Positions 3,502 through 22,307 of a DNA stretch of 24,300 bases are shown here, in pieces (the stretch's first letter is position 1; every line of letters begins with the position of its first letter). Below the pieces are notes generated by a model. It was not told where the DNA came from, did not search any database, and saw nothing but the letters and a program-made list of their open reading frames with translations. Position numbers and translations under genes: made by a program. The stretch lies in NCBI GenBank assembly GCA_049968235.1, contig JBMFRC010000032.1:1-24300 (forward strand), given 5' to 3'. Source of the stretch: Candidatus Hydrogenedens sp. (lineage in GTDB: Bacteria > Hydrogenedentota > Hydrogenedentia > Hydrogenedentales > Hydrogenedentaceae).

Positions 3502-3600
3502 ATTACTTATCCGTCTTTTTACTCACTTTCTTGGGTCGTGTCTTTCCATAAGAGCCACGCCAGATTTTACCGCGTTTTGTTCTACGGTCTCCTTTACCCA
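3502..3600 (-). CDS. 30S ribosomal protein bTHX (Thx / PSRP4 family), 32 aa, not in the ORF track
   Basis: Reverse complement of 3502..3600 reads ATG GGT AAA GGA GAC CGT AGA ACA AAA CGC GGT AAA ATC TGG CGT GGC..., giving [32 protein letters not shown]. This matches the Thermus Thx signature [25 protein letters not shown] nearly residue for residue. An AGGA sits about 14 nt upstream. It lies directly upstream of rpsL on the same strand. Confidence 0.8.
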
Positions 3601-3663
3601 TAAATATATATTTAATCCTTTGTTAAATTAGATAAAAAATTTTCGTTAGGGATAAAATGAAAA

Positions 3664-3710: not shown

Positions 3711-5393
3711 TTAGAAATTCAAATTCTTTTTTAATTCCTGAATTTTGCGAATCTGCTCTTTTACTTCTTTGATGAGTTTTTCATATTCTACAAACGGATT
3801 CATAATATCCGGCAGGCAATCGATAAACTGTTTCATCATTTTTTTTCGCACACCTCTTGCACTAATATATACAACCTTATCATATATCCAGAAACTAACC
3901 CATATACTAATTAAAAATACAATACAAGAATGAATAATAAAATTTGCTCCTTGATAATAACCCAGGAAATAGCCCGGAATAATTTGCCAGAAAAAATATA
4001 CCAATACCGTATACATAGGTACATAAAACAATTCCACTAAAAAATAGTTTGACAGACACCTTGCCTTCTTTACGAGATAAGAATCCACTCGCTCTTTCAA
4101 GAAATCAACTCCACTCTTGAAAAAATTTGATACAAAATTTTCAGATATAGATGGAACAGCATCTTTGCGAATCTGGGCTTTATCGAGAGCAAAGGCAAGG
4201 TCATATTGAACATTTTCTAATTCACGATTACATTTGTTTGATATTTGCATTGCTATTTCATGAACAATCTCATTAATTTTCCTTTCAAAATAAGTCATCT
4301 CTTCTTTATGGGGTTGAACCATCTCTCTTACAATGTTCCATGGACGGATTACTTTAGAAAGGGTTCTCAAAACACCGGATAAACGATTCCGTATCTGTGC
4401 AAGTAATAAAAAAATACCATGTAATTCAAATGCAATTTCATCCTTCAACAGATGGTAGAAGGTCCCTGCCTCCTTTCCAAACTCTGTCCGAATGATTCGT
4501 GCCTGTTGTTTTACTAATTCTACTTTTTTCCTATCTATAAATTCTTTCATTTCATTGACTGCAGGCTCCGTTTCCTGCAAAAAATCATCTATTCTCGCTA
4601 TCATCTTTCCTATCAACCCATGAACATTTGCCGTTTTTATCTGACGGATTTTTGTATCGGTAAGTTGTTGGGCAAGGAAATTTTCTAACTTTGTAAAATC
4701 AAATTCATTTGTTTCCGTATCCTCCGATTTTGTTCCTAATTTCCTATTCAATGCACGAAGTGCATTTATACAAAAATAAGCAAGCGGTTCTATCCCATCC
4801 AATCTTAATCTCTTTAACCAGTCATCCATGATAGATGGAATTTCTGATGTCATCTTTGTTTCCACCAGAACAAAACCCCGTTCTTTACTCACTTCACGAA
4901 TGATACTCCATGTTGCTTCTTCAAGGTATTTATCTCCATTGCCACAAAGCAGGATAAGGTCACATTTTTCTATCATCTTCTTTGTAAAATTGCGATGCTC
5001 CTTAATAACAGTATCGGTATCAGGGGTATCAATAAGAACAATATTATCGAGAGCGGAGCGGGCATATAATTCGCATTCTCCCTTCAATTCCGAATACGGT
5101 TCCCAATCCGGAGGATAATAGATAATAGGTCTATTTGTGCAGGGTCTCATTTCTGATGTCCTTGCAATTTTATCGCCAGCAATAGCATTAATCAGTGTTG
5201 ATTTACCTACCCCTGAACCGCCTACAATTGCAACGATTAATAGAGCATCAATTTTACTACTTCTTTCTTTTATTTCTTTAATACCCCCTTTTAACTTCTC
5301 CGCTATCGGTAAGAAACCTTCCCAATTCCCTTTATAATCCGCTATCTCTTCCAATTGATGGATAATTTTTTCTAAGTTTGCTTTAGGGAACAT
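3711..5393 (-). CDS. Bacterial dynamin-like GTPase B (Dynamin_N-type G domain plus helical stalk plus C-terminal two-helix membrane hairpin)
   Basis: G1 is GGSGVGKST and G3 is DTPD. The G4-equivalent is TKMT (aligned to NKVD in the upstream paralogue). A long helical region follows, then two hydrophobic helices (LVELFYVPMYTVLVYFFWQII... and FIIHSCIVFLISIWVSFWIY) near the C-terminus. The GAGGAG Shine-Dalgarno overlaps the stop of the upstream GTPase, with a 12-nt gap. Confidence 0.8.
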   Translation of the reverse strand: MFPKANLEKIIHQLEEIADYKGNWEGFLPIAEKLKGGIKEIKERSSKIDALLIVAIVGGSGVGKSTLINAIAGDKIARTSEMRPCTNRPIIYYPPDWEPYSELKGECELYARSALDNIVLIDTPDTDTVIKEHRNFTKKMIEKCDLILLCGNGDKYLEEATWSIIREVSKERGFVLVETKMTSEIPSIMDDWLKRLRLDGIEPLAYFCINALRALNRKLGTKSEDTETNEFDFTKLENFLAQQLTDTKIRQIKTANVHGLIGKMIARIDDFLQETEPAVNEMKEFIDRKKVELVKQQARIIRTEFGKEAGTFYHLLKDEIAFELHGIFLLLAQIRNRLSGVLRTLSKVIRPWNIVREMVQPHKEEMTYFERKINEIVHEIAMQISNKCNRELENVQYDLAFALDKAQIRKDAVPSISENFVSNFFKSGVDFLKERVDSYLVKKARCLSNYFLVELFYVPMYTVLVYFFWQIIPGYFLGYYQGANFIIHSCIVFLISIWVSFWIYDKVVYISARGVRKKMMKQFIDCLPDIMNPFVEYEKLIKEVKEQIRKIQELKKNLNF

Positions 5394-5405
5394 CGTTCTC
5401 TCCTC

Positions 5406-7229
5406 TTATGATTTTTGCTCTTCTATAATCTCATTGTTCTGTAGGCTATCTATTTGCAATTGCTCTATATTTCCCTCTTGCGAAATAAATCCCCCATTAA
5501 AAATATTCCGAACTTCTTTATCAAATTCCTCTGCAAAACTTATATATTTATATATATCCTGTAAAACATACTGTAGAACTTCTTCCTTTAATATCTGCTG
5601 AAGTTCTCCCTGTTTCTCTATTATCCATTTTTCATAAAGTGAATTTATGCTCTTCTGGAATCTTTTATATTCAACAGTTTCAATAAATGCCGAACCTCCA
5701 AGCATTCCTCCTCCAGCTATTATTTCCGCCCAGGGTCCAACATATGGCATTCCCCAAAACATGGAAATCATACCCGCACCCAAAAGCAGAAAAGACATAA
5801 TTCGCTTGCCATAAAAGCCATTCAAATTCGGAGAATCTAAAAAATCGGCGACAATCTTTTCAATTTCTTTTTGTATCCATTCAGGTTTTACAGAGAGCGC
5901 GTTTTCCATTCGTGTAATGATTTTCATTTTTACTACATCTCGATTGTTATGTAATTCATGCAATCGTTTATTTATATTTTCATCTATGTAATCAATATCG
6001 GAACTAAATTCTAATTTCAGCAACCAATCCAAGAGTTCATTAAAACATTTTTCTATCATTTCATTATGTTTTTGTTTTATCTCTACTTCTGCCCCTTCTG
6101 TGCTTATTTCCAACTTCTTGATTTCACTTCGATATCCGGAAAAAATAGAGGTGGGGAATAAAATCAAGTATGTAAAATAACCAATATGTTTCCTTAACTC
6201 GTATTTAATTTCTTCTACTAACCGAATCCAGCGGAATGGGATAAACTCCCTACTGATAATGGTATTTTCCAGATAATCTTCACAGAATCTTACCTTTGAT
6301 AGGGAAATATCTAAAAGTTTTAAAAATTTATTCTTATACCATTGTCCAAATTTTTCTTGAAAACTACTTATGGTTTTTTCTAAGATTTTTACTTTTGTTT
6401 CCTGCACAGGGAAAGAATAAATATACTCCCTTAATTCGGGAGCAACTTCTGTCAGCGGTTTAATAGGAGCATTTAAATAATTTTCATTGTAAGGATATTT
6501 AGGAAAGTAAAAACGGGGCAGATTATCATCCATTCCTACTTTTTTCATAAATTCTCTTATCTGTTTGTCTGCAATTTGAAGTGCTTTGGGATTATCAATA
6601 TCAACCTTGTTCATCACAGGAATCACGATCTTCCCTTCTTCATAAGCATGTCGGAAAAATTTGATTACCGCATCATCCATATACTTAGAATCATTTGTAA
6701 CCGCAATAATAATATCCCCAGCGGATACAATTTTATCTGCTATCTCCCAATGTTCCTTCGCAATAGAATCAATATCCGGAGTATCTAAATACAAATAAGT
6801 ATTGGGGATAGATTTTTCTTCCTTAACTAAAAGAATATGATTCGGGAGGGAATCGCTAATTGCCTCTTCTTTACTTTTCATCTCTCTCGCTTCAAATTCA
6901 AGAAACATATTGTTATCCAAACATTGTTTCGCCTTCTGTTCAGAGGCAATAATAACAGGTCTTTTGGTCGCCGCAGCATAAGGGTCTGTTGCAGTTAATT
7001 CTTGCTTCATTAAAACATTTAATATAGTGGACTTCCCTGTATTGGTTCCTCCGGCTACAGCAACAATAAGGCATCCTTCCCTTTCTAAATGAGGAACAAG
7101 TTTCCCCAAAAATAATTTCTCCCACGCAGACAAATCTTCCCCGTTTAATACATTTAAATCCAATTCCATTATCTTATTCTTAAACCGCTTCCATACATCA
7201 GCAAACAGGTCTATCCAATTACTTTCCAT
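5406..7229 (-). CDS. Bacterial dynamin-like GTPase A (Dynamin_N-type G domain plus helical stalk plus membrane hairpin)
   Basis: G1 is GGTNTGKST, G3 is DTPD and G4 is NKVD, with dynamin-like spacing. At 607 aa it has a helical middle region and a hydrophobic paddle (IMSFLLLGAGMISMFWGMPYVGPWAEIIAGGGMLGG). An AGAGGGAG Shine-Dalgarno lies 5 nt upstream of the ATG at 7229. Confidence 0.8.
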   Translation of the reverse strand: MESNWIDLFADVWKRFKNKIMELDLNVLNGEDLSAWEKLFLGKLVPHLEREGCLIVAVAGGTNTGKSTILNVLMKQELTATDPYAAATKRPVIIASEQKAKQCLDNNMFLEFEAREMKSKEEAISDSLPNHILLVKEEKSIPNTYLYLDTPDIDSIAKEHWEIADKIVSAGDIIIAVTNDSKYMDDAVIKFFRHAYEEGKIVIPVMNKVDIDNPKALQIADKQIREFMKKVGMDDNLPRFYFPKYPYNENYLNAPIKPLTEVAPELREYIYSFPVQETKVKILEKTISSFQEKFGQWYKNKFLKLLDISLSKVRFCEDYLENTIISREFIPFRWIRLVEEIKYELRKHIGYFTYLILFPTSIFSGYRSEIKKLEISTEGAEVEIKQKHNEMIEKCFNELLDWLLKLEFSSDIDYIDENINKRLHELHNNRDVVKMKIITRMENALSVKPEWIQKEIEKIVADFLDSPNLNGFYGKRIMSFLLLGAGMISMFWGMPYVGPWAEIIAGGGMLGGSAFIETVEYKRFQKSINSLYEKWIIEKQGELQQILKEEVLQYVLQDIYKYISFAEEFDKEVRNIFNGGFISQEGNIEQLQIDSLQNNEIIEEQKS

Positions 7230-7293
7230 TCATACTCCCTCTTTTTTATGTCATAAAAACAGGCTCATAATTTTTTATGTAATATTCTTAAAC

Positions 7294-7944
7294 TCACACG
7301 TTCAATTTAGGGCAGGAAGCCCTTAACATTTTAATTACGAATTCATTGATTTGTTTTTCATCTTCGGGGTCCATCCCCACAAATTTAAGGCTTACTTTAT
7401 TTTCCTTCCCTGTAAATAACACGTGCGTTACTGAACCTAATAAGTGAAACCATTGTTCTTTCCCTGTAACAAAATGCCTCAGTGAAAAGAATACCTCTAC
7501 ACTTTCTCCTACTTCCAGAGGTTCTTCAATGCTAATTAACATTCCTCCCGCGCTAATATTATGAACAATCGCTCTAATCTTTCGTGGGTGAGCATGAGGC
7601 TTTATCTCCGCAGGTAAGTTAATGGGCATCCTCCAGAACTGACGCAGAAATATACTTGATAAACTTTCTGGAATAGATATAACAATTCCTTCTTCTGCGG
7701 AGTCAGAAACCTCAATAATTTCTGTCTGCAAAACAAGGCAACCCCGATTGCTACACAATTCAAGTGCTACCTGCATCCCTGAGAAAAGTTCATTGGAAAA
7801 TTTCGTCTGTGATATACGGATATAGCCCCGAGTAACGGAAATAATCGTTACAGGACATAACTTCCCTTCAAAACTCAATACACCGATTGTTCCTGTTTTC
7901 AATGTTTCCTGAAGAATCTGTTCTATCTCTTTTTTTCTGTCCAT
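7294..7944 (-). CDS. PilZ-domain c-di-GMP receptor (YcgR-like architecture: PilZN-type N-domain plus PilZ)
   Basis: The C-terminal half carries both PilZ motifs, RQFWR (RxxxR) followed about 25 aa later by NISAGG ((D/N)xSxGG). The protein is 216 aa. A 64-nt gap separates it from the first dynamin-like gene on the same strand. Confidence 0.7.
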   Translation of the reverse strand: MDRKKEIEQILQETLKTGTIGVLSFEGKLCPVTIISVTRGYIRISQTKFSNELFSGMQVALELCSNRGCLVLQTEIIEVSDSAEEGIVISIPESLSSIFLRQFWRMPINLPAEIKPHAHPRKIRAIVHNISAGGMLISIEEPLEVGESVEVFFSLRHFVTGKEQWFHLLGSVTHVLFTGKENKVSLKFVGMDPEDEKQINEFVIKMLRASCPKLNV

Positions 7945-8047
7945 CCTTTGTTAACCTTTTCAAACACAACTAATAATTACTTTTCTCAACAAAAAATCCA
8001 TTACAATAAGTTATACCGTAATACCTTGGATTTCATTTTAATCGAAA

Positions 8048-10681
8048 ATGTTAAAAAATAACAAAAAAGGAATATTTTTTTTGTCGCTATCAATGCTTAG
8101 CACAGGAATACCTGAATTTGACCGAATATTAAGAGGGCTAATTGCTGGAGATAATGTTGTTTTTCGAGGAAGTTCTATTGTAGATTACCGTAAGTTTGTA
8201 ATACCTTTTGTGCAACATGGACATGAAACAGCCCGTCCTGTCGTATATTTTAGATACGGGAAACATCAACCTTTATTAAAAGAATCTGAAGTATCTACAT
8301 ACGCAAATGTGGACCCGAATGAAGGATTTGAACCTTTCATCAGTCAGTTGCATCAGGTTATAAAAAATACAGAACGTCGTGCTTTTTATGTTTTTGACCG
8401 ATTATCAGACCTTTCCCTCACCTGGTTCAGTGATACAATGCTTTGTAATTTCTTTATGCTAACCTGCCCCTATTTATTTGACCGTGGCGATTTAGCATAT
8501 TTTTTCCTCGACCGTTCCCAACATACACCTGAATCCGTTACACCTATACAACAGACCGCACAAATCGTCATTGAATTGTATGACCACAATGATGACCTGT
8601 TTATTCGTCCCGTAAAGGTTCAACAGAGGCACTCCCCTTCCATGCATATGTTACATCTATGGCAAGATGGGAAAATGACCCCTATTACAGAAAGCCATAT
8701 TATGGCAAAGGTATTATCATCTATCCTCAGCACGACTCTTAGCCCGGGAGAAGGACCCACAGATATATGGAACCGTATTTTAGGAGAAGCCAAGTATGTT
8801 ATCCGTTTAGGGGACGAAAAGATTAAACAAGAACTGATGGAAATTCTCATCAAAATGATGATAACACGGGAAAAACGAATGACCGAACTATTCCTTCAAA
8901 ATTTCTCTTTAGAAGACCTTGTAGAAATAGGTAGGCGTGTTATTGGCACAGGAATGATAGGCGGAAAATCTGTAGGTATGTTACTGGCACAGGCAATATT
9001 ACGAAAAAGCAATCCCAAATGGAACCAAAAGTTAGAAAAACATGATAGTTTTTATGTTGGGTCCGATGTATATTATACCTTTCTCGTTCGTAACGGTTGT
9101 TGGTGGGCACGAGAACAACAAAAAGAGTTGGAAAGTTTTCTTCCCGGAGCAGAACGCATCCGCAGACGTATCATTACTGGGGAATTTCCCGAAGATATTG
9201 AAATGAAGTTTGAACAGATGCTTGAATATTTTGGTTCTTCACCTATCATTGTTCGTTCCAGCAGTTTATTGGAAGATAATTTCGGAAATTCCTTTGCCGG
9301 AAAATATGAAAGTGTATTTTGTGCCAATCAAGGTTCTACAAGGCAAAGACTGGAAGATTTCAAAGCGGCTGTTCGCACGGTATATGCCAGTACTGTAAGC
9401 GAAGAAGCGTTATATTATCGGAAACGGCGGGGACTTTTGGACAAAGATGAACAAATGGCTCTTTTAGTCCAACGCGTATCCGGATCCCAGCATGCACGAC
9501 TATATTTCCCGAATATTGCAGGGGTAGGTTTCTCATACAATCCCTATGTCTGGTCTGCGGAAATTGACCCTAAGGCAGGAATGTTACGTTTAGTATTTGG
9601 ATTGGGCACACGAGCGGTTGACCGTTCGGATGACGATTACACGAGAATCGTTGCTCTCAATGAACCTCTATTGCGGCCCGAAGGCTCTACCAAAGAACAG
9701 AAAAAATACTCCCAACAAAAAGTAGATGTTATTGATTTAGACGGGAACCGACTCGTTTCCATGCCCGTGCAGGAAATTGTTCCTCAATGTGAAGGGATTC
9801 CCTTAGAACTTTTTGTATCTCAGGATGTGGAAGCAGAACGATTCTATAAAGAACGCGGACAAAAAATGCCTCCTCAATGGAAAATCCGTTTTGATTCTCT
9901 CCTTACCGAAACCTCATTTGTAGAAGATATGCATGAGATTCTCATTACACTGGATAGGACATATCAGAACCCTGTAGATGTAGAATTTACCGCAAATTTT
10001 AAGAATAATAAAGATTTCTATATAGATATTGTTCAATGCAGACCTTTACAGGTCAGTGACCGTTCGGAACTCCTTTCAGAACCTGTTATTGAGGATAAGA
10101 CCAACCTAATTATTCAAACAGATGGTCCTATTATCGGAAGAAGCCGTTCTAATCAGGTACATCGAATTATCTATGTTGTCCCTCATACCTATGGAGAATT
10201 GCCAATATCTGAACGTTATGCTATTGCTCGTGCTATCGGCATCTTAAATCAAATACCTCCACTTATTACAGGCGACCCTATTGTGGTTCTTATAGGACCT
10301 GGACGTTGGGGAACCAGCGCACCTTCGTTAGGAGTATCCGTTAGTTTCTCTGAGATTAGTTCGGTCTCCTTCTTGTGTGAAATTGTTGCTATGAGAGAAG
10401 ACCTCACTCCAGATGTATCCTTGGGGACCCATTTTTTTAGCGAATTGGTAGAATCGGATTTGTTGTATTTCGTCCATTTTCCCGCTAAAGAAACTCATTA
10501 TTTCAATGAACAATTATTAACTCAACTGCCCAACAAATTAAAGGAAATATCAGCCGGATTGGAAAAATACGAAAACATTATTAAGGTATATGATTTTCTA
10601 TCTGATTCCGGAAAAACATGCCATATTTACGCAAATACTTTCGACCAGAAGCTGTTTTTATATCTCAATAATGAAGAATAA
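8048..10681 (+). CDS. Large fusion protein: degenerate KaiC/RecA-like N-terminal domain plus PEP-synthase/PPDK-type ATP-grasp nucleotide-binding domain (PPDK_N), with no recognisable phosphohistidine swivel domain
   Basis: The N-terminus reads TGIPEFDRILRGLIAGDNVVFRGSS...VVYFRYG, mimicking the KaiC/RadA TGIPxLDxxLxGG...LYVS layout but without a GxxGxGKT Walker A. Residues around 300-470 carry the PEP-utilising ATP-binding hallmarks GTGMIGGKSVGMLL and IIVRSSSLLEDNFGNSFAGKYESV. No GGRTSHAAI-type motif is present. The start codon is uncertain: there is no Shine-Dalgarno at 8048, and an alternative ATG near 8093 (MLSTGIPEF) exists. Confidence 0.6.
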   Translation: MLKNNKKGIFFLSLSMLSTGIPEFDRILRGLIAGDNVVFRGSSIVDYRKFVIPFVQHGHETARPVVYFRYGKHQPLLKESEVSTYANVDPNEGFEPFISQLHQVIKNTERRAFYVFDRLSDLSLTWFSDTMLCNFFMLTCPYLFDRGDLAYFFLDRSQHTPESVTPIQQTAQIVIELYDHNDDLFIRPVKVQQRHSPSMHMLHLWQDGKMTPITESHIMAKVLSSILSTTLSPGEGPTDIWNRILGEAKYVIRLGDEKIKQELMEILIKMMITREKRMTELFLQNFSLEDLVEIGRRVIGTGMIGGKSVGMLLAQAILRKSNPKWNQKLEKHDSFYVGSDVYYTFLVRNGCWWAREQQKELESFLPGAERIRRRIITGEFPEDIEMKFEQMLEYFGSSPIIVRSSSLLEDNFGNSFAGKYESVFCANQGSTRQRLEDFKAAVRTVYASTVSEEALYYRKRRGLLDKDEQMALLVQRVSGSQHARLYFPNIAGVGFSYNPYVWSAEIDPKAGMLRLVFGLGTRAVDRSDDDYTRIVALNEPLLRPEGSTKEQKKYSQQKVDVIDLDGNRLVSMPVQEIVPQCEGIPLELFVSQDVEAERFYKERGQKMPPQWKIRFDSLLTETSFVEDMHEILITLDRTYQNPVDVEFTANFKNNKDFYIDIVQCRPLQVSDRSELLSEPVIEDKTNLIIQTDGPIIGRSRSNQVHRIIYVVPHTYGELPISERYAIARAIGILNQIPPLITGDPIVVLIGPGRWGTSAPSLGVSVSFSEISSVSFLCEIVAMREDLTPDVSLGTHFFSELVESDLLYFVHFPAKETHYFNEQLLTQLPNKLKEISAGLEKYENIIKVYDFLSDSGKTCHIYANTFDQKLFLYLNNEE

Positions 10682-10699
10682 TATCAATAGAATTATTCG

Positions 10700-11446
10700 C
10701 TAATTGGGCTTGATTTTACCAAGGTCAATAGTAGATGCGGGAGGAATTTTTATTTCTTTGATTTCCAATATCATTCCGCGTTCGGTTTTTAGACGAAGGT
10801 TATACATACCGGCAGGAATAGGTTTGAAATGGATATTGCCTGCTTCATCGGTATGCCCATCACAGGGCCACCAGGGACCCAATTTCGGGTGAAACATCAT
10901 CAAGCCTACATTCTCATTTTTTACAGGCTGGTCATCTTTATCAAACAATTGTAATTCAATAATACTGGCTTCCAGCATCAATACTTGCATATCTTCAAGG
11001 GAATCCGCATCGGTAGGTGGAATCTCAAAATAGTTGTTGGGAAAATAATGAAGGATAGGGTCCCAGGCACGGATAAACACACCTTTGTTCTTAGGAATTT
11101 GAATGGTGCTAATCCCATCGGGACCGCTTAAATTTCCGCGGGCAATAGGTTCATCAAAGGCATTCGGTTTTTCAGTCGCAATACCCGCCATATTTTCCAG
11201 AGGCATACCTGCACTGTTTATAATCATGATTTTCCCGAAAACCCAGGAACTGGAAGCCGATGTATTTGGAACCTGTGTTTGACTTTGTACCACCTCCGTT
11301 TGAGAAGAATTCCCTACGGATGTTTTTTTAGGTTCGGATACTGTCGGCTGAGGTGCAGTATTTTTCTGACTGCACGAATTGAATACCAGAAACAATAAAA
11401 TGAGCCATACATTTATATATTTATTGTGCGGTTGTTTCATAGGCAT
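10700..11446 (-). CDS. Lipoprotein of unknown function (possible carboxypeptidase-regulatory/transthyretin-like fold)
   Basis: It has an N-terminal signal peptide with a lipobox-like LVFNSC and a low-complexity S/T/Q-rich linker. The C-terminal beta-rich segment is GMYNLRLKTERGMILEIKEIK. Its 5' end overlaps the ABC exporter's 3' end by 20-26 nt, indicating co-transcription. The start is ambiguous between 11446 and 11440. Confidence 0.55.
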   Translation of the reverse strand: MPMKQPHNKYINVWLILLFLVFNSCSQKNTAPQPTVSEPKKTSVGNSSQTEVVQSQTQVPNTSASSSWVFGKIMIINSAGMPLENMAGIATEKPNAFDEPIARGNLSGPDGISTIQIPKNKGVFIRAWDPILHYFPNNYFEIPPTDADSLEDMQVLMLEASIIELQLFDKDDQPVKNENVGLMMFHPKLGPWWPCDGHTDEAGNIHFKPIPAGMYNLRLKTERGMILEIKEIKIPPASTIDLGKIKPN

Positions 11447-13403
11447 TACGGAATTGATGTTGGTAAAGTTGATAGTAAATTCCCTGGTGTTTTAATAACT
11501 GTTCATGAGAACCCTGTTCTACAATTTTTCCACGGTCCAGCACTAAAATACGGTCTGCATTCATAATTGTAGATAGACGATGTGCAATGATAATACTGGT
11601 TCGCCCTTTCAGGAAAGTCGTCAGGGCTTCCTGTATATATTTTTCACTTTCAGAATCCAGATTGGAGGTTGCCTCATCGAGAAGTAATACTTCGGGATTT
11701 TTTAGAATAGCACGGGCTAAAGCGAGGCGTTGTCTCTGCCCGCCGGAGAGTAATTGTCCAAACTCCCCCAGATTGCTATCCAATCCTTTAGGCATTTGAG
11801 CGACAAACTCCTTTGCATGTGCCATAACAAGAGCCTGCTCAATTTGTTCATCTGTTATACCTGTATTTCCCCCCGTCAGATTATCACGGACTGAACCTGA
11901 AAAAAGAATTGTTTCCTGAGTAACAATTGCAATTTGCTTTCGCAGGCTCTCTAATGTAACCTTGCGAATATCCGTATCATCAAAATAAATAGTGCCTTCT
12001 TTTACATCATAAAAACGTGGGATAAGTTTAACGAGTGTCGTTTTACCTGAACCACTGGGACCAACCAGTGCAACCCTCTCCCCTCGACGGATAGAAAAGT
12101 TTAAGTTATCAAGGACAATTTTTTTACCATCATAAGAAAAGGAAATATTTTCAAACCTTATTTCTTTAGATAACGGTTCTAATGAAATAGCATGAGGGGC
12201 ATCCTGAATATCGGGTTTGAGGTCCAGATATTCAAAAACACGCTCCGCACTGGCAACACTCGTTTGTATCAGATTGTTTACCGTAGATAACTTACGGACA
12301 GGGTCAAGAATCATTGCCAGTGCAAGATATACCTGTAATAAGTCGCCCATATCCAGCCGATAAGTAATCACACGATAGCCACTGAATAGGATAAAACCAG
12401 AGAAACCTACCACAAGGATAAATTCTGTAATGGGTTCCGTTGCGGAATCTGCTTTAACCATTTTTCGTAAAAACCTCCGCAATCGATTTGCCTCGACATC
12501 ATATCGCTGTTTCAAAAATTCCTCCATTTGAAAACCTTTAATGATAAGAATACCCCGGGTTGTTTCATTAATAAGCGAAGCAAGGTCAGCAACTTTCATA
12601 AGTGAACGACGAACACTTTTGCGAACATACAGCCCTAACTGAATTAACGCATAACCCAGGGGGGGTAAAACACATATCCCTACAAGTGTTAACCACGGGT
12701 CCACACTAATAGCAACGGCAAGAAATGTTAATGCCTTGAAAGGTTCTCGAAGCACTTTAATAAAGGCGTTGGATAAACCACGATTCACCATAAATATATC
12801 ATTGCTAAAACGAGCAACCACATCCCCTGACGAATGGGATTCAAAAAAACCTAATGATTGGGTCATTATATTCTGATACATCTTCCGGGATAAATCAACA
12901 GAAACAAAGGCACCCACAGAACCTGCAAAATATTCCTGAAAAAAACGAGCACAACCACTGATAAAAGTAAGTAGGATAACAATAATAATGGCAATAGACA
13001 AAGCAAATAATTTGTGGGCTCTCATTTTTTCCACGAATAGAAGGAATGTTTTATCCCATTCTGCTGGCGATGTATTCAACCATTTATGAATTTGTGTATC
13101 CCATTTCTGAACTTCATGTGCGTATTTAATGGCAGGGTCCTCTTCCGGATTAAAAACTGTTTTTTTCTGCATTTCAGGAGGTTGATATAGAGTAAGTTTT
13201 ACAGCAGTTCCTAAACCTACTATCATCGTTCCGAAAGAAAAAGCAATAACAAGGGAAAGAGCAATAGATAAAAGGAGTCGTGTCTTATATATCAGTGCAT
13301 ACCGGATAAGACGGGCATAAACTTTCCACCCGGAACTCCTTCCTCGATGTTCAGACAATAGAGAATCAACTATAGGCTCTGTATTTACAGGTAAAGGTTC
13401 CAT
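11421..13403 (-). CDS. ABC exporter, fused permease-ATPase (MsbA/lipid-A-exporter-like)
   Basis: Six predicted N-terminal TM helices, then an NBD with Walker A GPSGSGKTT, the signature LSGGQRQRLALARA and Walker B LLLDEATSNLD. There is an unusual insertion of about 75 aa between TM1 and TM2 (LYQPPEMQKK...WDKTF). Confidence 0.9.
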   Translation of the reverse strand: MEPLPVNTEPIVDSLLSEHRGRSSGWKVYARLIRYALIYKTRLLLSIALSLVIAFSFGTMIVGLGTAVKLTLYQPPEMQKKTVFNPEEDPAIKYAHEVQKWDTQIHKWLNTSPAEWDKTFLLFVEKMRAHKLFALSIAIIIVILLTFISGCARFFQEYFAGSVGAFVSVDLSRKMYQNIMTQSLGFFESHSSGDVVARFSNDIFMVNRGLSNAFIKVLREPFKALTFLAVAISVDPWLTLVGICVLPPLGYALIQLGLYVRKSVRRSLMKVADLASLINETTRGILIIKGFQMEEFLKQRYDVEANRLRRFLRKMVKADSATEPITEFILVVGFSGFILFSGYRVITYRLDMGDLLQVYLALAMILDPVRKLSTVNNLIQTSVASAERVFEYLDLKPDIQDAPHAISLEPLSKEIRFENISFSYDGKKIVLDNLNFSIRRGERVALVGPSGSGKTTLVKLIPRFYDVKEGTIYFDDTDIRKVTLESLRKQIAIVTQETILFSGSVRDNLTGGNTGITDEQIEQALVMAHAKEFVAQMPKGLDSNLGEFGQLLSGGQRQRLALARAILKNPEVLLLDEATSNLDSESEKYIQEALTTFLKGRTSIIIAHRLSTIMNADRILVLDRGKIVEQGSHEQLLKHQGIYYQLYQHQFRNAYETTAQ

Positions 13404-14465: not shown

Positions 14466-16319
14466 CTAATCAATATCCAGTTCTTCCTCATCCAGCCCTT
14501 CCTCTGTAATTTCTTCACCTGGGAGCGATTCTTCTTCTGTTTCTTTCATAACAGACACTTTTACAATTCTCCCCATAAAACGATTTAAAATTGATTGAAT
14601 CTTCGGGTCCTGCTTTATTTCCTGTGCCAGTTCCTGTGGAACAAGGTCATTTAACAATCCCCTACGTGGAGATTGCACAGAAGATTCGTTTTGTTTTATT
14701 TCTCGATGAACAATTTGTATTTGCTTACCCGGAAAACCAAGTTCAGTAACCGTTTCGAAAATATACCGTTTTGTCTCTTCCTTCGCAAGGCATGAAAGTG
14801 CATTATTATCCGAAGGATTAACATGTATAACTACTGTTTCCGTTATTGCATCATAATGAATCTGCACATCTTTCAAAAACAACGATAATGTTGCCTTTTT
14901 TTTACTAAGTTCACGAAGCACCTTTTTAGTAAAATTTTTATCTGAATCACTCCGTTTCACGGATAAAGTACCGGATGGAGAAAGTTCCGTAGTGGGTGTA
15001 GATACTCCCGATATTGAGGATAACGATGTGGATTTTATATTTTTTTCTACCTCTGTTTTTTCAATAGAGGGGGTTTTTATCTTTTTTTTTTCCGAGGTAT
15101 TCTCCTGCTGAGAATATGCGGAACGATTTTCCTGAACCGTTTTTATCTTTGAAAATTGGATAGAGTCCTCAAGTTGCATTAATTTTTCCAGAATAGACTC
15201 AATAGATAATTCAGCACCTACCTTACAATTTTTAATAAAGAATGCTTCTAAGGCGGTTCGGTGAGAAAGTTGCGAGGTAAAATTTTGATTTAATTCCGCT
15301 AATTGCTCAACAAACTTCATAAGTTGAATTATTGTAAACTTTGCAGATTGTTCTTTTAATCGTTTTACATCTTCTTCCGGAAGGAAAAAGATATCCTCCT
15401 GTTGAGTTGTTTTAAGAATAAGTAAGTTTCTAATGTGTCGAATAAACTCCTCCACAAACTGATTCAGGTCTTTTCCGGAAGTTGAAACCTCATCAATTAT
15501 CGAGAGAACCTTAGATATATCTTTATCCTGTAACGCATATACCAACTGGTCAATCTTATCTGTCTCTATAAGCCCCAGAACATCCTGAACATCTTTATAG
15601 GTAATTTCCCCTTCACAATAGGTCATTAGTTGGTCAAGAATACTTTCCGCATCGCGAACCCCACCATCCGCAGAGCGAGCGATTGCAAACAACGCCTCTT
15701 GGGTTGCTTTCCTCTTTTCCGCTTTTACAATCTGTTCCAATAATTTTACAATATCCGGCACAGCAACTCTTCGGAAATCATACCTCTGACAGCGGGAAAT
15801 AATCGTTGCAGGGATTTTGTGGGCTTCTGTTGTGGCAAGAATAAAAACCGCATGAGCCGGAGGTTCTTCCAAAGTTTTCAACAGAGCATTAAAAGCTGCA
15901 GAAGATAACTGATGAACTTCGTCAATGATATATACCTTATATCGTGCATGTGCAGGAGCCAGACGAACCGCTTCGCGAATTTCACGGATATTATCTACAC
16001 TATTATTAGAAGCCCCATCAATTTCCTGAACATCCAAATGAGTACCCTTACTTATTTCTATACAGTTATCACACTTATCGCAAGGCTCGGGAACAGGCTT
16101 ATCCGAACTTTGACAATTTAATGCTTTAGCAAGAATACGAGCAGTAGTCGTCTTCCCAATTCCTCGCGAACCAATAAATAATAACGCATGATGTATCCGC
16201 CCAGAAGAAACAGCATTTTTTAGTGTTCGGGTAATATGTTCCTGTCCAACGACCTCATCAAATTGTTGAGGTCTCCATTTTCGAGCAAGAACATGATATA
16301 CATCATTCGGTTTCGGCAT
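14466..16319 (-). CDS. dnaX: DNA polymerase III subunits tau/gamma
   Basis: MPKPNDVYHVLARKWRPQQFDEVVGQEHI...GSRGIGKTTTARILAKALNC with a Zn-finger CDKCDNC, clamp-loader AAA+ motifs and an acidic C-terminus. The start is set at the ATG at 16319. The track extension to 16391 begins at a GTG and runs into the SRP RNA gene. Confidence 0.95.
   Translation of the reverse strand: MPKPNDVYHVLARKWRPQQFDEVVGQEHITRTLKNAVSSGRIHHALLFIGSRGIGKTTTARILAKALNCQSSDKPVPEPCDKCDNCIEISKGTHLDVQEIDGASNNSVDNIREIREAVRLAPAHARYKVYIIDEVHQLSSAAFNALLKTLEEPPAHAVFILATTEAHKIPATIISRCQRYDFRRVAVPDIVKLLEQIVKAEKRKATQEALFAIARSADGGVRDAESILDQLMTYCEGEITYKDVQDVLGLIETDKIDQLVYALQDKDISKVLSIIDEVSTSGKDLNQFVEEFIRHIRNLLILKTTQQEDIFFLPEEDVKRLKEQSAKFTIIQLMKFVEQLAELNQNFTSQLSHRTALEAFFIKNCKVGAELSIESILEKLMQLEDSIQFSKIKTVQENRSAYSQQENTSEKKKIKTPSIEKTEVEKNIKSTSLSSISGVSTPTTELSPSGTLSVKRSDSDKNFTKKVLRELSKKKATLSLFLKDVQIHYDAITETVVIHVNPSDNNALSCLAKEETKRYIFETVTELGFPGKQIQIVHREIKQNESSVQSPRRGLLNDLVPQELAQEIKQDPKIQSILNRFMGRIVKVSVMKETEEESLPGEEITEEGLDEEELDID
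15081..15091 (-). other. Candidate programmed -1 frameshift / transcriptional-slippage site in dnaX (mRNA G GAA AAA AAA AAG AUA)
   Basis: Ten consecutive T on the plus strand (15082..15091) give A10 followed by G in the dnaX mRNA, containing the A AAA AAG heptamer used by E. coli dnaX. It falls at residue about 411-413 of 617, the canonical gamma/tau boundary. The -1 frame stops after 6 codons (UGA at 15063..15061) and the other shifted frame stops after 1 codon. Confidence 0.5.
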
Positions 16320-16349
16320 AAATATATCCCTGCCATTTATGTAAAAAGT

Positions 16350-16622
16350 GCTCGCGCACCCACCTTCGAACGATACGCCCAGAACGACCACGGAGCAGTT
16401 AGCTCGGGCCCGGCGACCCTACAGCACACAGACAGAATCAACTACGGCTGCTTCCTTCCGGACCTGACCGGGTTTGTTGCCTGCCTGTTGAGTAGGACCA
16501 AGCCGTCAACACCACTTACTCCGCGCCAGCTAAAGGACATACCGCCCTCGGGAGGGAATTCAGCCTCGCTAAAGCGGATTTGCGAGTTCAGGAACGCCGC
16601 TTCGTTCCCACCTAGCGCGAGC
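16350..16622 (-). ncRNA. ffs: Signal recognition particle RNA, long Bacillus-type with Alu domain (about 273 nt)
   Basis: The minus strand carries the universally conserved domain IV sequence GGUCAGGUCCGGAAGGAAGCAGCC. It also has blocks near-identical to B. subtilis scRNA (UAAGUGGUGUUGACG, AAUCCGCU..GAAUUCCCUCCCGAGG, GGGCCCGAGCUAACUGCU). The 5' GCUCGCGC pairs with the 3' GCGCGAGC to close the terminal helix. The region is a GC-rich island in AT-rich DNA, sits directly upstream of dnaX (classic synteny), and is preceded by a consensus promoter. Confidence 0.85.
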
Positions 16623-16628
16623 ACTATT

Positions 16629-16657
16629 ATTATAACGATTTTCCAGCAAAAAGGCAA
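16629..16657 (-). promoter_or_regulatory. Sigma-70-like promoter of the SRP RNA gene
   Basis: The minus strand reads TTGCCT (complement of 16652..16657), a 17-nt spacer, then TATAAT (complement of 16629..16634). This places the transcription start about 7 nt downstream at the G of GCUCGCGC. Confidence 0.5.
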
Positions 16658-16676
16658 CAAAGGATTATTGTATATT

Positions 16677-18236
16677 TTACTGCCCAATTCTTAAAATTTT
16701 ACTAAATTTTTGTATAGATGGTAAGTGGTTTGCATTTAAAAACATAGGGAAGGTTTTGATTGTACCCCATATAGACCTTCGCTGAGAACGGTAAATCATT
16801 CTTAGTGCGGTCAAAGGCATAAGAACTGTTTTTGTAATAATATCCATGCCAATAATAATTGATTTTAAAACCAAACTCCGGGGATTCTTTTTTAGTCTTT
16901 CTACGAGAGCCATAATTATTTTGGGTGAAACAAAACAGGCAGAACGAATAAGGCGGTTATCTTCCGTTGTCTTCCAGAGAAAAAAGTCTTCATATACAAC
17001 AGTATTTTCCTTTATGATACCTTCCTCTATAGCTCTTGTGCGTATTTCAGTTCCGGGATAAAACCGTAGAGAGAAGAACAAAGGCATAAATGGTCGGGGC
17101 GTTTTTGATAATGTAATAACAGTATTTAATCGGTCTTCTGGCGTTTCAAATGGATTATCTAAAATAATGTCGTAATAAATACCCACAGGATACTCCGAAA
17201 CAATTTGTGCTGCTTTTAAGAATGTTTCCGATTTTGTAGGGCGTTTATAAATCTCTAAACAGGTACGGTCACTTCCACTTTGCAAGCCCATATTGGTCCA
17301 GGTCATCCCCGCATCTACAAGAATAGACATTCGTTCATGGGATACCTCTCGAGCCGTTGTTTTCGCAATAAAAGGTAAACCGATACGCTTTTTATAAACT
17401 TCGCAAAATTCCTTTATATATTCCATATCGGATGCAAAGAAACAGTCATCAATAATGTCCACATAAAAAATCGGGGGACCTTCTTTCATCGCCAATTCTA
17501 ATTCCCGGATAAAATGCTGAACACTCCGATGTCTCACAGGCCAGGTCCCATATAATTTACGCAAAAATCGATTACAACAATAAGCACACCCGTAAGGACA
17601 ACCCCGTGAAGTCATGATTTTATAGACCTGCCCACGATACCTCTTATACCGCATGAGATGTTCAACCCGTACAGGTTCTATTTTTGTCCCTGTATCCACA
17701 TAACTACGCTCAGGTATTTGTCTCAAAGGAGGGAGCATATCTAGGTCTGAAATAAGGGGAGAAATAGGATTTGTTTGTAATATTCCCTCTTCATCGAAAT
17801 AGGCAAGATTATTAATTTTCTTCAGGTCATCTTTATTTGCACCACTCTTTACAGATGAAAGAAATGCTTTTAGGGACAGTTCCCCTTCACCGATACAAAC
17901 AAAGTCCGCTATCTTAGCACAGCGGTCGGGTTCTGTTGTTGCTTCAATTCCTCCCCAGATAACATAAGTTTCGGGCAACACTTCGCGAATTATACGGGTT
18001 ATTTCCGATGCAACCTGAAAATCCTCAGCAGTTAAACTGATGCCAACTACTTTTGGATTTTCTTCCATTAAAAATCTTTTTACATGTTCATGTTGATTTC
18101 TACCCGCATACTTTTTAAAGACGGGAAAATACAAAAGGACAGAATCAAATCCTTCTTGACGAAGGTATAAATGTAATCCCTTTAACCCTAAAATATCCAG
18201 ATTAGGCTGAGCAGAAACCAGACATATATCTGTCAT
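16677..18236 (-). CDS. B12-binding domain-containing radical SAM enzyme (class B radical SAM family)
   Basis: The N-terminal Rossmann-like cobalamin-binding region runs to about residue 130. It is followed by a radical SAM core with CPYGCAYC (CxxxCxxC). The protein is 519 aa. Confidence 0.85.
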   Translation of the reverse strand: MTDICLVSAQPNLDILGLKGLHLYLRQEGFDSVLLYFPVFKKYAGRNQHEHVKRFLMEENPKVVGISLTAEDFQVASEITRIIREVLPETYVIWGGIEATTEPDRCAKIADFVCIGEGELSLKAFLSSVKSGANKDDLKKINNLAYFDEEGILQTNPISPLISDLDMLPPLRQIPERSYVDTGTKIEPVRVEHLMRYKRYRGQVYKIMTSRGCPYGCAYCCNRFLRKLYGTWPVRHRSVQHFIRELELAMKEGPPIFYVDIIDDCFFASDMEYIKEFCEVYKKRIGLPFIAKTTAREVSHERMSILVDAGMTWTNMGLQSGSDRTCLEIYKRPTKSETFLKAAQIVSEYPVGIYYDIILDNPFETPEDRLNTVITLSKTPRPFMPLFFSLRFYPGTEIRTRAIEEGIIKENTVVYEDFFLWKTTEDNRLIRSACFVSPKIIMALVERLKKNPRSLVLKSIIIGMDIITKTVLMPLTALRMIYRSQRRSIWGTIKTFPMFLNANHLPSIQKFSKILRIGQ

Positions 18237-19212: not shown

Positions 19213-20355
19213 ATGAAAGAAATTTTCCGTTTTTTAGGATCGTATAAATTATCGGTTGTAATACTTTTCTTCCTGATGGTAATTGTATTTTTAGGAACGC
19301 TGGCTCAAACCGAGCATGGTATTTATGAAATTCAAAACAAATACTTTGAATCCGTATTTGTTTTGCACTGGCTCGGGAATTACATACCTCTTCCTCTACC
19401 GGGAGGGGGATTACTTATGGTTCTTCTGTTACTAAATTTATTTATTGGCGGAGTTCTTTTAGCCCCGAAAAGTATAAAAAAGCCCGGTATGCTCATCGCA
19501 CATGGTGGTGCTATTTTACTCATCCTTGGTGGATTTTGGGGCGAGTTCTGGGGAGATTATGGTCAAATTTCTTTGCTTGAAGGCGAGACAAAAAATACAT
19601 TTGAAAACACAAAAAATTGGGAAATTTATATCTGGAAATTGGATAAGGAAAAAAAGATACCTATTACTGAATGGATTATTCCCCAACAACACTTCTCCAA
19701 ACTAAAAGGAGCCATGCGAAGGAGTTTCTTTTCAAAAGAGTTCCCTTTTGAAATAACTCTGATGCGATTTATGACAAATGCCAAACCTCGATTTACCATT
19801 CCCGGTGTAGAACAAGGTATTCAAGGAGTCCTTTTAGAACCTGCACCTTCGGAACGGGAAGAAGAATTAAATCTTGCTGGTATTTATGTAGAAATTTCTG
19901 CAAATGAACAGCATCACCTGGGCATACTCTGGGGTGGAGAAAAACAACCATGGACTTTTGAGATAGGAAATGAATTGTATTCAATGGGGATACGACACCA
20001 GAGAATGGAACTTCCGTTTTCCATAAAATTGGAAAAATTTATTAAAGAATTTTATCCCCGAACCAACAAACCGCGATTCTTTGCAAGTGAAGTAGTATAT
20101 GCTACAGGAAATTGGGAACAGAGGACCGTGATACGAATGAATGAACCCCTTCGTTTCCAGGGTTTTACAGTCTATCAAGCATCATGGGGAACTGTAAATG
20201 ACAGCCCCTCTGCACCTGTCTTCTCCGTTCTTGCGATAACAAAAAACCCGGCGGAACAGGTCCCCTTATATTCGTGCATAATCATTTCCATAGGTTTATT
20301 ACTACATTTTTCCCAAAAACTAATAAGATTTCTGAAAAGTTCGAGAGGAGCATAA
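19213..20355 (+). CDS. ccsB: Cytochrome c biogenesis protein CcsB/ResB (System II)
   Basis: Four predicted TM helices with conserved histidines in TM3 (LIAHGGAILL) and the last TM (LLLHFS). A periplasmic domain lies between them, in the ResB-like layout. ccsA follows 9 nt downstream. Confidence 0.75.
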   Translation: MKEIFRFLGSYKLSVVILFFLMVIVFLGTLAQTEHGIYEIQNKYFESVFVLHWLGNYIPLPLPGGGLLMVLLLLNLFIGGVLLAPKSIKKPGMLIAHGGAILLILGGFWGEFWGDYGQISLLEGETKNTFENTKNWEIYIWKLDKEKKIPITEWIIPQQHFSKLKGAMRRSFFSKEFPFEITLMRFMTNAKPRFTIPGVEQGIQGVLLEPAPSEREEELNLAGIYVEISANEQHHLGILWGGEKQPWTFEIGNELYSMGIRHQRMELPFSIKLEKFIKEFYPRTNKPRFFASEVVYATGNWEQRTVIRMNEPLRFQGFTVYQASWGTVNDSPSAPVFSVLAITKNPAEQVPLYSCIIISIGLLLHFSQKLIRFLKSSRGA

Positions 20356-20363
20356 GTAGTTTC

Positions 20364-22307
20364 ATGACTTTCTTTCTAATATCATCCATCATTCTTTCCG
20401 GATATGTTTCTTTGAACACTGTAGAGTTAACTACAGAAACCCATCAATCTCCAAAATTAACCATACCTCAATGGGATAAAGAAATAATAACCATTGCAGA
20501 GAAGTTACCCATTCAATCCGATGGCCGAATAAAACCATTGAGTACTCATGCAAGATTTTTACTATTAAAATTAAGTGGGAAGACATCCATAAAAAGTCCA
20601 GAAGGAAAAAGTTTGTCTCCGACAGAGTGGTTCTTACATTGTATTTTTTATCCTGACATTGCTAAAAAATACCCGGTCTTTATTGTTCATGACCTGTCGG
20701 TATTGGAAAACCTTGGATTGCAAGGACACGAAAAAAAACGAGACCGATACACTTACAACGAACTACTTCCCGCTCGTGAAGAATTGATGAATCAAGCCCA
20801 GAAGTACTCCCAGATACCTCCTGCTCAGCGAACCCGTATTCAAGAACAGGTTCTTAACTTAGCGGATAATCTACTAACTTTTGAAGAAATCATTGCTTAT
20901 CTGGACTTTGCCCGATACAAATATTCCATCCCTCCAAGTTCCCTGCTTTCACAATTTTTCCCTAATAAAAAAGAACCTTTTTTATCAGAAATTATTGAAA
21001 TATTTCCGGAATTCAAGAAAAAACTCAAAGAAATTTCGCCAACCTTAAACGAAGAACAAACTAAAGAAATATTATCAACCATTCGAAATTTATTAGGGGA
21101 TGTAAATCAACTTGTTGTAAAAGCAGAACATTTTACAGTTATTCCTTCCGATGAACTATCAAAAAAAGCGTGGCTCTCTCCTTTAGATATTGCTATTCAA
21201 ATTTTTGACCCATCTACAGAAAATATACCTGACATTCATCTTTTTATGCTTTTTACAAAACTGGAACAGGAAAAAGGAATCCCAGAACAATTCAAAAAAT
21301 TATTTACACAATTAGTCGAAGAAATTACGCAGAAAGCAGAGGCAAGAGGAGAAGGAAAAAAGATAAATCTGGAAGTTTTGTATTATAAAGGAAAATTCTT
21401 ATTTTATAGCCAGTGGATATTCTTCCTCGCTGTGATTTTAACTGCAATATGGTGGCTTTCAATTAAAAACAAAGTATTGAAATTTAGTGTTTTTTCTGTC
21501 AACACAATCGCTTTATTATTACTCATTATCGCCATTACTTTTCGTTGCATTATCCGTGGTCGTCCTCCCGTAACAACCCTTTACGAAACCATTTTGTTCA
21601 CTACAGCCACCGCAGTTCTTCTGGCTTTTATCATGGAACGATTTACCCGAGATAATATTTCATTAAGCCTTGCCAGTTTTTTAGGATTATTAGGTCTATT
21701 TCTGGCTAACCGTTACGAGATGAAAGAAGGTACAGATACCATGCCCAGTCTTGTAGCGGTATTAGATACAAATTTCTGGCTTACCATTCATGTAACAACG
21801 ATTGTAATCGGATATGGAGCAGGTTTATTAGCCAGTGCTTTTGGACATGTCTGGATTTTAGGGAAAATATTAAGACTTAAGAAAAATGATGCAACCTTTT
21901 ACAAACGGCTTTCGCGAGGAATATACGGAACAATTTGCTTTTGTTTCTTCTTTTCTTTTATAGGCACAGTATTGGGGGGAATCTGGGCTTTGCAGAGTTG
22001 GGGACGTTTCTGGGGTTGGGACCCAAAAGAAAACGGGGCTTTGCTCATTGTTCTCTGGTGTCTAATTGTAATTCATGCTCATTTAGGGAAAATTATAAAT
22101 AGCCTTGGTATAACATTAGGTTCTATCATTTTAGGTATTGTCGTTTCCTTCTCCTGGTGGGGAGTAAACTTATTAGGCGTGGGCTTACATAGTTATGGCT
22201 TTACCCGGGGAGCATGGAATTCCCTTCTGATATTCTGGATTATTGAAATATTGCTTATCTTTTCCGGTACCTATATAAACCTGATAGAAAAGAAACAACA
22301 AACATAA
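20364..22307 (+). CDS. ccsA: Cytochrome c-type biogenesis protein CcsA/ResC (heme-handling WWD protein) with an N-terminal extension of about 340 aa
   Basis: The C-terminal polytopic core has the tryptophan-rich WWD motif WGRFWGWDPKENGALL and conserved His residues. The start is trimmed to the ATG at 20364 (MTFFLISS...), which has a GAGGAG Shine-Dalgarno. The track ORF begins at 20274, overlapping ccsB. Confidence 0.85.
   Translation: MTFFLISSIILSGYVSLNTVELTTETHQSPKLTIPQWDKEIITIAEKLPIQSDGRIKPLSTHARFLLLKLSGKTSIKSPEGKSLSPTEWFLHCIFYPDIAKKYPVFIVHDLSVLENLGLQGHEKKRDRYTYNELLPAREELMNQAQKYSQIPPAQRTRIQEQVLNLADNLLTFEEIIAYLDFARYKYSIPPSSLLSQFFPNKKEPFLSEIIEIFPEFKKKLKEISPTLNEEQTKEILSTIRNLLGDVNQLVVKAEHFTVIPSDELSKKAWLSPLDIAIQIFDPSTENIPDIHLFMLFTKLEQEKGIPEQFKKLFTQLVEEITQKAEARGEGKKINLEVLYYKGKFLFYSQWIFFLAVILTAIWWLSIKNKVLKFSVFSVNTIALLLLIIAITFRCIIRGRPPVTTLYETILFTTATAVLLAFIMERFTRDNISLSLASFLGLLGLFLANRYEMKEGTDTMPSLVAVLDTNFWLTIHVTTIVIGYGAGLLASAFGHVWILGKILRLKKNDATFYKRLSRGIYGTICFCFFFSFIGTVLGGIWALQSWGRFWGWDPKENGALLIVLWCLIVIHAHLGKIINSLGITLGSIILGIVVSFSWWGVNLLGVGLHSYGFTRGAWNSLLIFWIIEILLIFSGTYINLIEKKQQT

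Follow-up and report, generated by a model that had tools for sequence, protein, structure and literature searches.

The closest described relatives of the protein analyzed here are phosphoenolpyruvate (PEP) synthase, pyruvate phosphate dikinase (PPDK) and rifampin phosphotransferase (RPH; e.g. Listeria 5hv1/5hv6), with which it shares a PPDK_N-type ATP-grasp domain. Some PPDK_N ATP-grasp systems phosphorylate an acceptor other than pyruvate, and the ATP-grasp engine is thus reusable for other substrates. The protein in question has 877 residues and is encoded by an open reading frame (ORF) at 8048..10681, from an ATG start to the stop codon inclusive, on the forward strand of a 24,300-nucleotide stretch of Candidatus Hydrogenedens sp. 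contig JBMFRC010000032.1, the whole of which is termed the window. The gene belongs, as an ordinary representative, to a widespread, highly conserved and uncharacterised three-domain family, consisting of an N-terminal KaiC/RecA-fold domain, the ATP-grasp domain and an orphan C-terminal domain, and in many genomes the family gene stands beside genes of nitrogen assimilation. This protein family, for which no curated family, structure or literature was found, is a new variation on the PPDK_N dikinase theme.

In comparison with RPH, PEP synthase and PPDK, the family is without a recognisable PEP-utilizers swivel, TIM barrel or rifampin (RIF)-binding domain, its extra domain is N-terminal and of KaiC/RecA fold, and it carries signatures of its own, namely F[AS]GKY, LQCRP, GPGRWG and S-x-G-T-H-F-F. 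The PPDK_N systems acting on non-pyruvate acceptors keep a canonical PEP-utilizers histidine domain on a partner subunit and are linked to aromatic catabolism, whereas the present family is accompanied by nitrogen genes. With respect to the KaiC-like RecA ATPases (KaiC CI/CII, PH0284, SSO2452 and FlaH), the family differs in that its Walker A motif is wholly replaced and its domain is fused to an ATP-grasp domain. The RecA-fold modules that likewise lack a P-loop (Elongator Elp4/5/6 and the N-terminal domain of BcsE) bear no sequence relationship to it and are found with other partners and in other contexts.

Family extent and conservation

A homologue search over 5.8 billion proteins returned at least 8000 significant matches, the best 120 of which were 857-990 residues long and covered 95-100% of the query at 49-89% identity, under the record names "PEP/pyruvate-binding domain-containing protein", "pyruvate, phosphate dikinase", "pyruvate, water dikinase" and "hypothetical protein". 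Since full-length homologues number in the thousands, the 877-residue ORF is not a chance ORF, and its coordinates and ATG start were confirmed. The closest matches point to a Hydrogenedentota genome as the origin of the window. As the homologues begin 5-6 residues ahead of the LSTG motif, translation may in fact start at TTG 8081 or ATG 8093, giving 862-866 residues; the domain analysis is unaffected by this choice.

In a species survey of GTDB contigs with one genome per species, at least 595 stretches encoded a relative, and the family is present at full length and about 50% identity in at least 595 species genomes of at least 13 phyla. The best 80 stretches, which were used in the analyses below, carried the labels Hydrogenedentota, Planctomycetota, Verrucomicrobiota/Kiritimatiellia, Lentisphaerota, Spirochaetota, delta- and gammaproteobacteria, Armatimonadota, Sumerlaeota, Omnitrophota, Gemmatimonadota, Acidobacteriota and Fibrobacterota. 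Mean column identity in a 51-sequence family alignment (A1) was 63%, with more than 150 invariant positions distributed over all three regions of the protein. The initial annotation, made from the window alone, had described the protein as an unusual fusion; the survey overturns this description, as the architecture is that of one conserved family. Conservation at about 50% identity over more than a dozen bacterial phyla, together with the more than 150 invariant residues, almost certainly reflects a central function. The longer members P0111 and P0077 were inspected for informative fusions and set aside, their extensions being low-complexity N-termini that probably stem from mis-called starts.

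Gene neighbourhood analysis

Flanking ORFs within 10 kb of the family gene were clustered without supervision across 85 homologous loci. A glutamate dehydrogenase (GDH) gene was present in 49 of the 85 loci and directly adjacent (<700 bp) in 35; its placement among the 49 was upstream and co-directional in 27, upstream and divergent in 16 and downstream in 6. A gltD/gltA-type NADPH glutamate synthase gene was found in 22 loci and gltB in 17, such that 60 of the 85 loci contained at least one of GDH, gltD and gltB. The GDH neighbours passed the NCBIfam threshold for NADP-specific GDH, as did the gltD-like neighbours that of TIGR01316. By our estimate, a single-copy gene would fall by chance within the 20-kb neighbourhood in about 0.5% of cases for a genome of ~4 Mb. 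The observed 58% for GDH against this expectation, in more than one orientation and spread over at least 13 phylum-level labels, constitutes a strong signal of functional linkage.

A further recurrent neighbour is a gene resembling nrpR (WHD_RNase_R plus NRD1_2 domains), seen in 22 of 88 loci from several phyla; regulators of the NrpR type sense 2-oxoglutarate. In the Hydrogenedentota homologues at 56-58% identity the order is in every case nrpR, divergent from gdh, with gdh followed co-directionally by the family gene. The NrpR-like genes lie at 4965-5975 in locus L001, 5206-6252 in L086 and 5129-6139 in L088, and at 19 other loci, and none matched an NCBIfam model. As an observation in its own right, the archaeal nitrogen repressor NrpR has homologues in bacteria, and these adjoin gdhA in Hydrogenedentota, Planctomycetota, Verrucomicrobiota/Kiritimatiellia, Lentisphaerota and Chitinispirillaceae.

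Domain architecture

The three domains and their linker are all encoded on the forward strand, and the full-length AlphaFold model has a mean predicted local distance difference test (pLDDT) of 85 and a predicted template modelling score (pTM) of 0.83. The motifs quoted in the initial annotation were all located: TGIPEFDRILRGL spans residues 19-31, GGKSVGMLL residues 305-313 and VRSSSLLEDNFGNSFAGKYES residues 402-422.

The N-terminal KaiC/RecA-fold domain spans residues ~17-235 (8096..8752) and has a RecA-like alpha/beta core. Upon searching PDB sequences with a profile of family residues 15-300, the top match was the KaiC-like protein PH0284 (E 0.062), and in this alignment the family residues Q-V-D-S-I-E-D-Y stand opposite G-G-P-G-T-G-K-T of PH0284. 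At the Walker A position none of 62 members has GK[ST], the columns reading Q/R-V-D-S-I-E-D-Y, while the Walker-B-like Asp117 is invariant among the same members. Single members gave weak Pfam matches to KaiC, PAXNEB (Elp4) and MEDS; Pfam KaiC (PF06745) was matched by 1 of the 62 members (E 0.0078) and not by the window protein. The earlier proposal of a pseudo-KaiC/RecA domain without a P-loop therefore holds at the level of the fold and of the missing loop, and fails as strict membership of the KaiC family. This domain is joined to the ATP-grasp domain by a linker of four helices in the model (residues 240-296; 8765..8935).

The PPDK_N-type ATP-grasp nucleotide-binding domain occupies residues 303-674 (8954..10069), as had been anticipated. 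It is the sole Pfam domain of the protein (PF01326; E 1.1e-52; 179.7 bits, the cut-off being 27; model positions 3-316 of 328), with nothing matched in the ~300 residues before it or the ~200 after it, and the ATP-grasp fold was recovered. Its motifs are GGK at 305-307, VRSSS at 402-406, D644/E646 and Q663-C-R665-P. Of 26 superfamily members, at least 25 keep K307, R403, E646, Q663 and R665; D644 is invariant in alignment A1, and the motifs line up with their counterparts in E. coli PpsA. As in PPDK, the GGK lysine, the VRSS arginine, D-x-E and Q-x-R are taken to serve in binding of ATP and Mg. The conservation of these motifs in the family and its relatives and their alignment to PpsA argue for an active nucleotide site and a catalytically intact domain.

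The C-terminal domain (residues 675-877, ~203-206 residues; 10070..10678) is conserved as strongly as the rest of the protein and gave no Pfam, PDB-sequence or Foldseek match. It contains GPGRWG at residues 750-755 (10295..10312), which is conserved over the wider superfamily, and His795 (codon 10430..10432) in the S-x-G-T-H-F-F motif, a candidate catalytic or phospho-carrier residue. His795 is the only histidine conserved in all 26 superfamily sequences, and in the predicted model the invariant pair T794-H795 stands at the N-terminus of a helix, following a loop of low pLDDT. A stand-alone model of the domain, built with sub-sequences of the search matches, reached a pLDDT of 87.7, and the domain weakly resembles the swivelling beta/beta/alpha fold. 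It comes directly after the ATP-grasp domain, in the order seen for the swivel of PpsA, and the BLASTP alignment with PpsA continues collinearly into GDPIVVLIGPGRW / GDVLVTDMTDPDW, at the GD-x-V...P-x-W motif of the PpsA swivel.

The possibility of a cryptic phosphohistidine swivel in residues 672-877 was examined, and all the sequence tests were negative. The family profile found no match for the C-terminal domain among all PDB sequences, and with its filters disabled the family hidden Markov model (HMM) found nothing in PpsA, PtsI or PtsP of E. coli. Alignments of genuine swivel domains were assembled from 3 and then 16 sequences, taken from E. coli and plasmid-borne PEP synthase, PPDK, RPH, Enzyme I and pyruvate kinase genes, and hhalign against the 16-sequence alignment gave P 0.11. 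Foldseek on the domain likewise returned no match. It is thus best termed an orphan domain with a candidate catalytic histidine, for which homology to the swivel is not demonstrated. This conserved domain with its invariant histidine and the family-wide nitrogen-gene synteny had both been overlooked in the initial annotation.

The wider superfamily

When all 1.84 billion representatives of 50%-identity clusters were scanned with HMMER, 654 proteins matched at E<=1e-30, a number that rose to 3323 at E<=1e-3. In many relatives of 30-40% identity the match is limited to query residues ~260-870, that is, the linker, ATP-grasp and C-terminal domains; the four-helix linker is kept in relatives without the KaiC-like domain, the alignments beginning at about query residue 255-300. 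These relatives occur in several architectures: about 600-640 residues without an N-terminal domain; about 760-790 residues, of which some 150 form an unrelated N-terminus; about 920 residues; about 1060 residues with an extra C-terminal NTP_transf_2/Pol-beta nucleotidyltransferase domain (P0230 and P0250); and about 1500-1650 residues with two PPDK_N stretches, as carried by P0121 and P0193. GPGRWG and S-x-G-[TS]-H-[FMI]-[FY]-x-[DE]-[LM]-[VI]-E are kept in all 25 relatives examined, and none of the examined relatives belongs to a curated NCBIfam family. The constancy of the ATP-grasp and C-terminal domains in combination with varying N-termini suggests that the former pair forms a catalytic engine and that the N-terminus, here the pseudo-KaiC domain, is a swappable module for specificity or regulation.

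Proposed function and alternative explanations

From the architecture, conservation and synteny observed above, we infer a histidine relay, an acceptor and a physiological role. Our tentatively favored proposal, which we consider plausible and slightly short of probable, is an ATP-dependent phosphotransferase, possibly operating by a histidine relay, in ammonium/glutamate assimilation, with the pseudo-KaiC domain setting the acceptor; the role in assimilation is drawn from the position of the genes beside NADP-GDH, glutamate synthase and the NrpR-like regulator. In such a scheme ATP would be bound by the ATP-grasp domain and the phosphoryl group would be passed to His795 on the C-terminal domain, or His795 would be used catalytically, in analogy to the relay of PEP synthase, PPDK and RPH. 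The group would then be transferred to an acceptor specified by the pseudo-KaiC module, which may instead sense an effector. Either a metabolite at the 2-oxoglutarate/glutamate node or a protein, for instance GDH, could be the acceptor.

Several observations weigh against this proposal. Full-text searching found no literature on the family or on the combination of PPDK_N, KaiC and GDH. The operator of archaeal NrpR (GGAA-N6-TTCC) shows no enrichment ahead of the family genes and is absent from the gap preceding the gene in the window. Moreover, gdhA, gltB, gltD and nrpR are all missing from the window, so that for this genome the nitrogen link is transferred from orthologues. The clade of the window has lost the adjacency to gdhA, and the present placement of the gene beside PilZ and dynamin-like genes is most likely a local rearrangement and not functional coupling.

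The best surviving alternative, in our judgement rather unlikely, does without a histidine relay: the ATP-grasp domain would act directly, as a kinase, ligase or AMPylase, on a substrate held by the C-terminal domain, or the protein would be a regulator without catalysis, the pseudo-KaiC domain acting as an oligomerisation scaffold or as an effector sensor, for instance of nitrogen or energy status, that modulates GDH by binding. Against it stand the single histidine that is invariant throughout the superfamily, in a motif at a helix N-terminus, and the constant pairing of ATP-grasp and C-terminal domains with variable N-termini, which is more suggestive of an engine with a specificity module. 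In addition, all characterised PPDK_N-type ATP-grasp enzymes, to our knowledge, use a carrier histidine.

The phosphotransferase proposal may be extended to a bolder form, which is unlikely as a whole and a little more so than the alternative without a relay. In this form the family would define a previously unrecognised class of His-relay phosphotransferases, composed of PPDK_N and a GPGRWG/S-x-G-T-H-F-F carrier domain with swappable N-terminal modules, whose KaiC-like branch would phosphorylate NADP-GDH or a metabolite of nitrogen status. If true, a new ATP-dependent layer of control would act on ammonium assimilation in Hydrogenedentota, Planctomycetota, Verrucomicrobiota, Spirochaetota, Desulfobacterota and other phyla. 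Independently of this bolder form, the repeated placement beside gdhA, glutamate synthase and NrpR-type genes gives concrete and testable grounds for the hypothesis that the family is a component so far missing from nitrogen assimilation, or from the regulation of that process, in many lineages that are abundant in the environment and mostly uncultured. The joining of a PPDK_N engine to a degenerate KaiC module and a new histidine-bearing domain widens the known repertoire of the enzyme class.

A further alternative follows the immediate surroundings of the gene in the window. The gene is separated from a divergent PilZ gene (7294-7944, reverse strand) by 103 nt (7945..8047), in agreement with the gap of roughly 100 nt noted previously. 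Downstream of PilZ lie two genes with Dynamin_N matches encoding dynamin-like GTPases (DLPs; 5406-7229 and 3711-5393, reverse strand), the block as a whole extending over 3711..7944. The initial annotation had suggested co-regulation or functional linkage across this gap, in which case the protein could, for example, be a kinase or AMPylase of a cyclic di-GMP/membrane-remodelling pathway, co-regulated through the 103-nt promoter region. This coupling is favored by the retention of the order DLP, DLP, PilZ, divergent from the family gene, in the window and at L003/L004 and L005 despite different outer flanks. The family gene at these loci is 89% (L003/L004) and 78% (L005) identical to that of the window, and the DLP and PilZ proteins of L005 are 47-52% identical to those of the window.

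Beyond these close relatives the arrangement disappears. Searching the 85 loci by tblastn with the window PilZ and both DLPs gave matches only at L003/L004 and L005; DLP and PilZ genes were near the family gene in none of the 80 species genomes and were also missing at L001, L002 and L086-L088. At L002, whose homologue is 77% identical, the gene lies between dprA and adk, the homologues of 56-58% identity lack the block too, and the ancestral context within the phylum is nrpR-gdh. The gap itself offers no detectable promoter or RNA element: Rfam found no riboswitch or other RNA element in the 103 nt, and sigma-70-like promoter and terminator scans gave matches not above shuffled expectation. 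The coupling is accordingly very unlikely, and a local DLP/PilZ linkage may exist within the small clade of the window without being a property of the family. The initial annotation had itself named a wide occurrence of the architecture without adjacent DLP genes as speaking against its suggestion, and precisely this was observed.

That the protein is a bona fide PEP synthase or PPDK, as the homologue names "pyruvate, phosphate dikinase" and "pyruvate, water dikinase" and the PPDK_N domain might imply, is so improbable as to be practically dismissed, in line with the earlier statement that it cannot be a conventional PEP synthase. The mobile phosphohistidine domain PF00391 is absent from the 877-residue protein in the Pfam search and from 61 members. 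The PEP/pyruvate TIM barrel PF02896 is absent as well, the protein ending 203 residues past the ATP-grasp domain; both PF00391 and PEP-utilizers_C were detected in E. coli PpsA by the same search. The NCBIfam equivalogs for PEP synthase, PPDK, RPH and PigC matched the ATP-grasp region only and more than tenfold below their cut-offs (61.3 bits against 883 for PEP synthase). The family should therefore not carry the names of PEP synthase or PPDK in annotation, where such mis-naming is frequent.

Other features of the window

Besides the two DLP genes, PilZ and the 877-residue gene, the window contains fusA, rpsG, rpsL, a lipoprotein gene, an ATP-binding cassette (ABC) exporter gene, NMO, dnaX, a radical SAM gene, ResB/CcsA and aat. 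The PilZ-DLP-DLP block (3711-7944, reverse strand) is immediately downstream of a fusA-rpsG-rpsL-thx cluster. A 32-residue ORF at 3503-3601 (reverse strand), between rpsL and the second dynamin-like gene, occupies the place where L003 and L004 have a called Thx ribosomal protein gene. The DLPs gave weak PADLOC matches to LeoA and LeoBC (E about 1e-9), and the 877-residue protein had no PADLOC match to an anti-phage defence system.

On the other side of the gene, a putative lipoprotein of 248 residues is encoded at 10700-11446 (reverse strand), convergent with the 877-residue ORF and ending 19 bp from its stop codon. This ORF has no family match and no homologue in any related locus, and it overlaps the 3' end of the MsbA-like ABC exporter gene (11421-13403, reverse strand) by 26 bp.

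A bacterial large signal recognition particle (SRP) RNA (Rfam RF01854, 172.8 bits) was identified at 16352-16620 on the reverse strand, directly upstream of dnaX. The GTG start listed for dnaX (16391) overlaps it, so the true start probably lies further in, and a 152-residue ORF at 16236-16694 (forward strand) is probably a shadow ORF on the SRP RNA gene. ResB-like and CcsA-like (Cytochrom_C_asm) genes at 19213-22307 (forward strand) correspond to system II cytochrome c biogenesis. For the second of these ORFs the start listed is a GTG at 20274, which places 82 bp of it inside the first; the true start of the second is thus probably further downstream.

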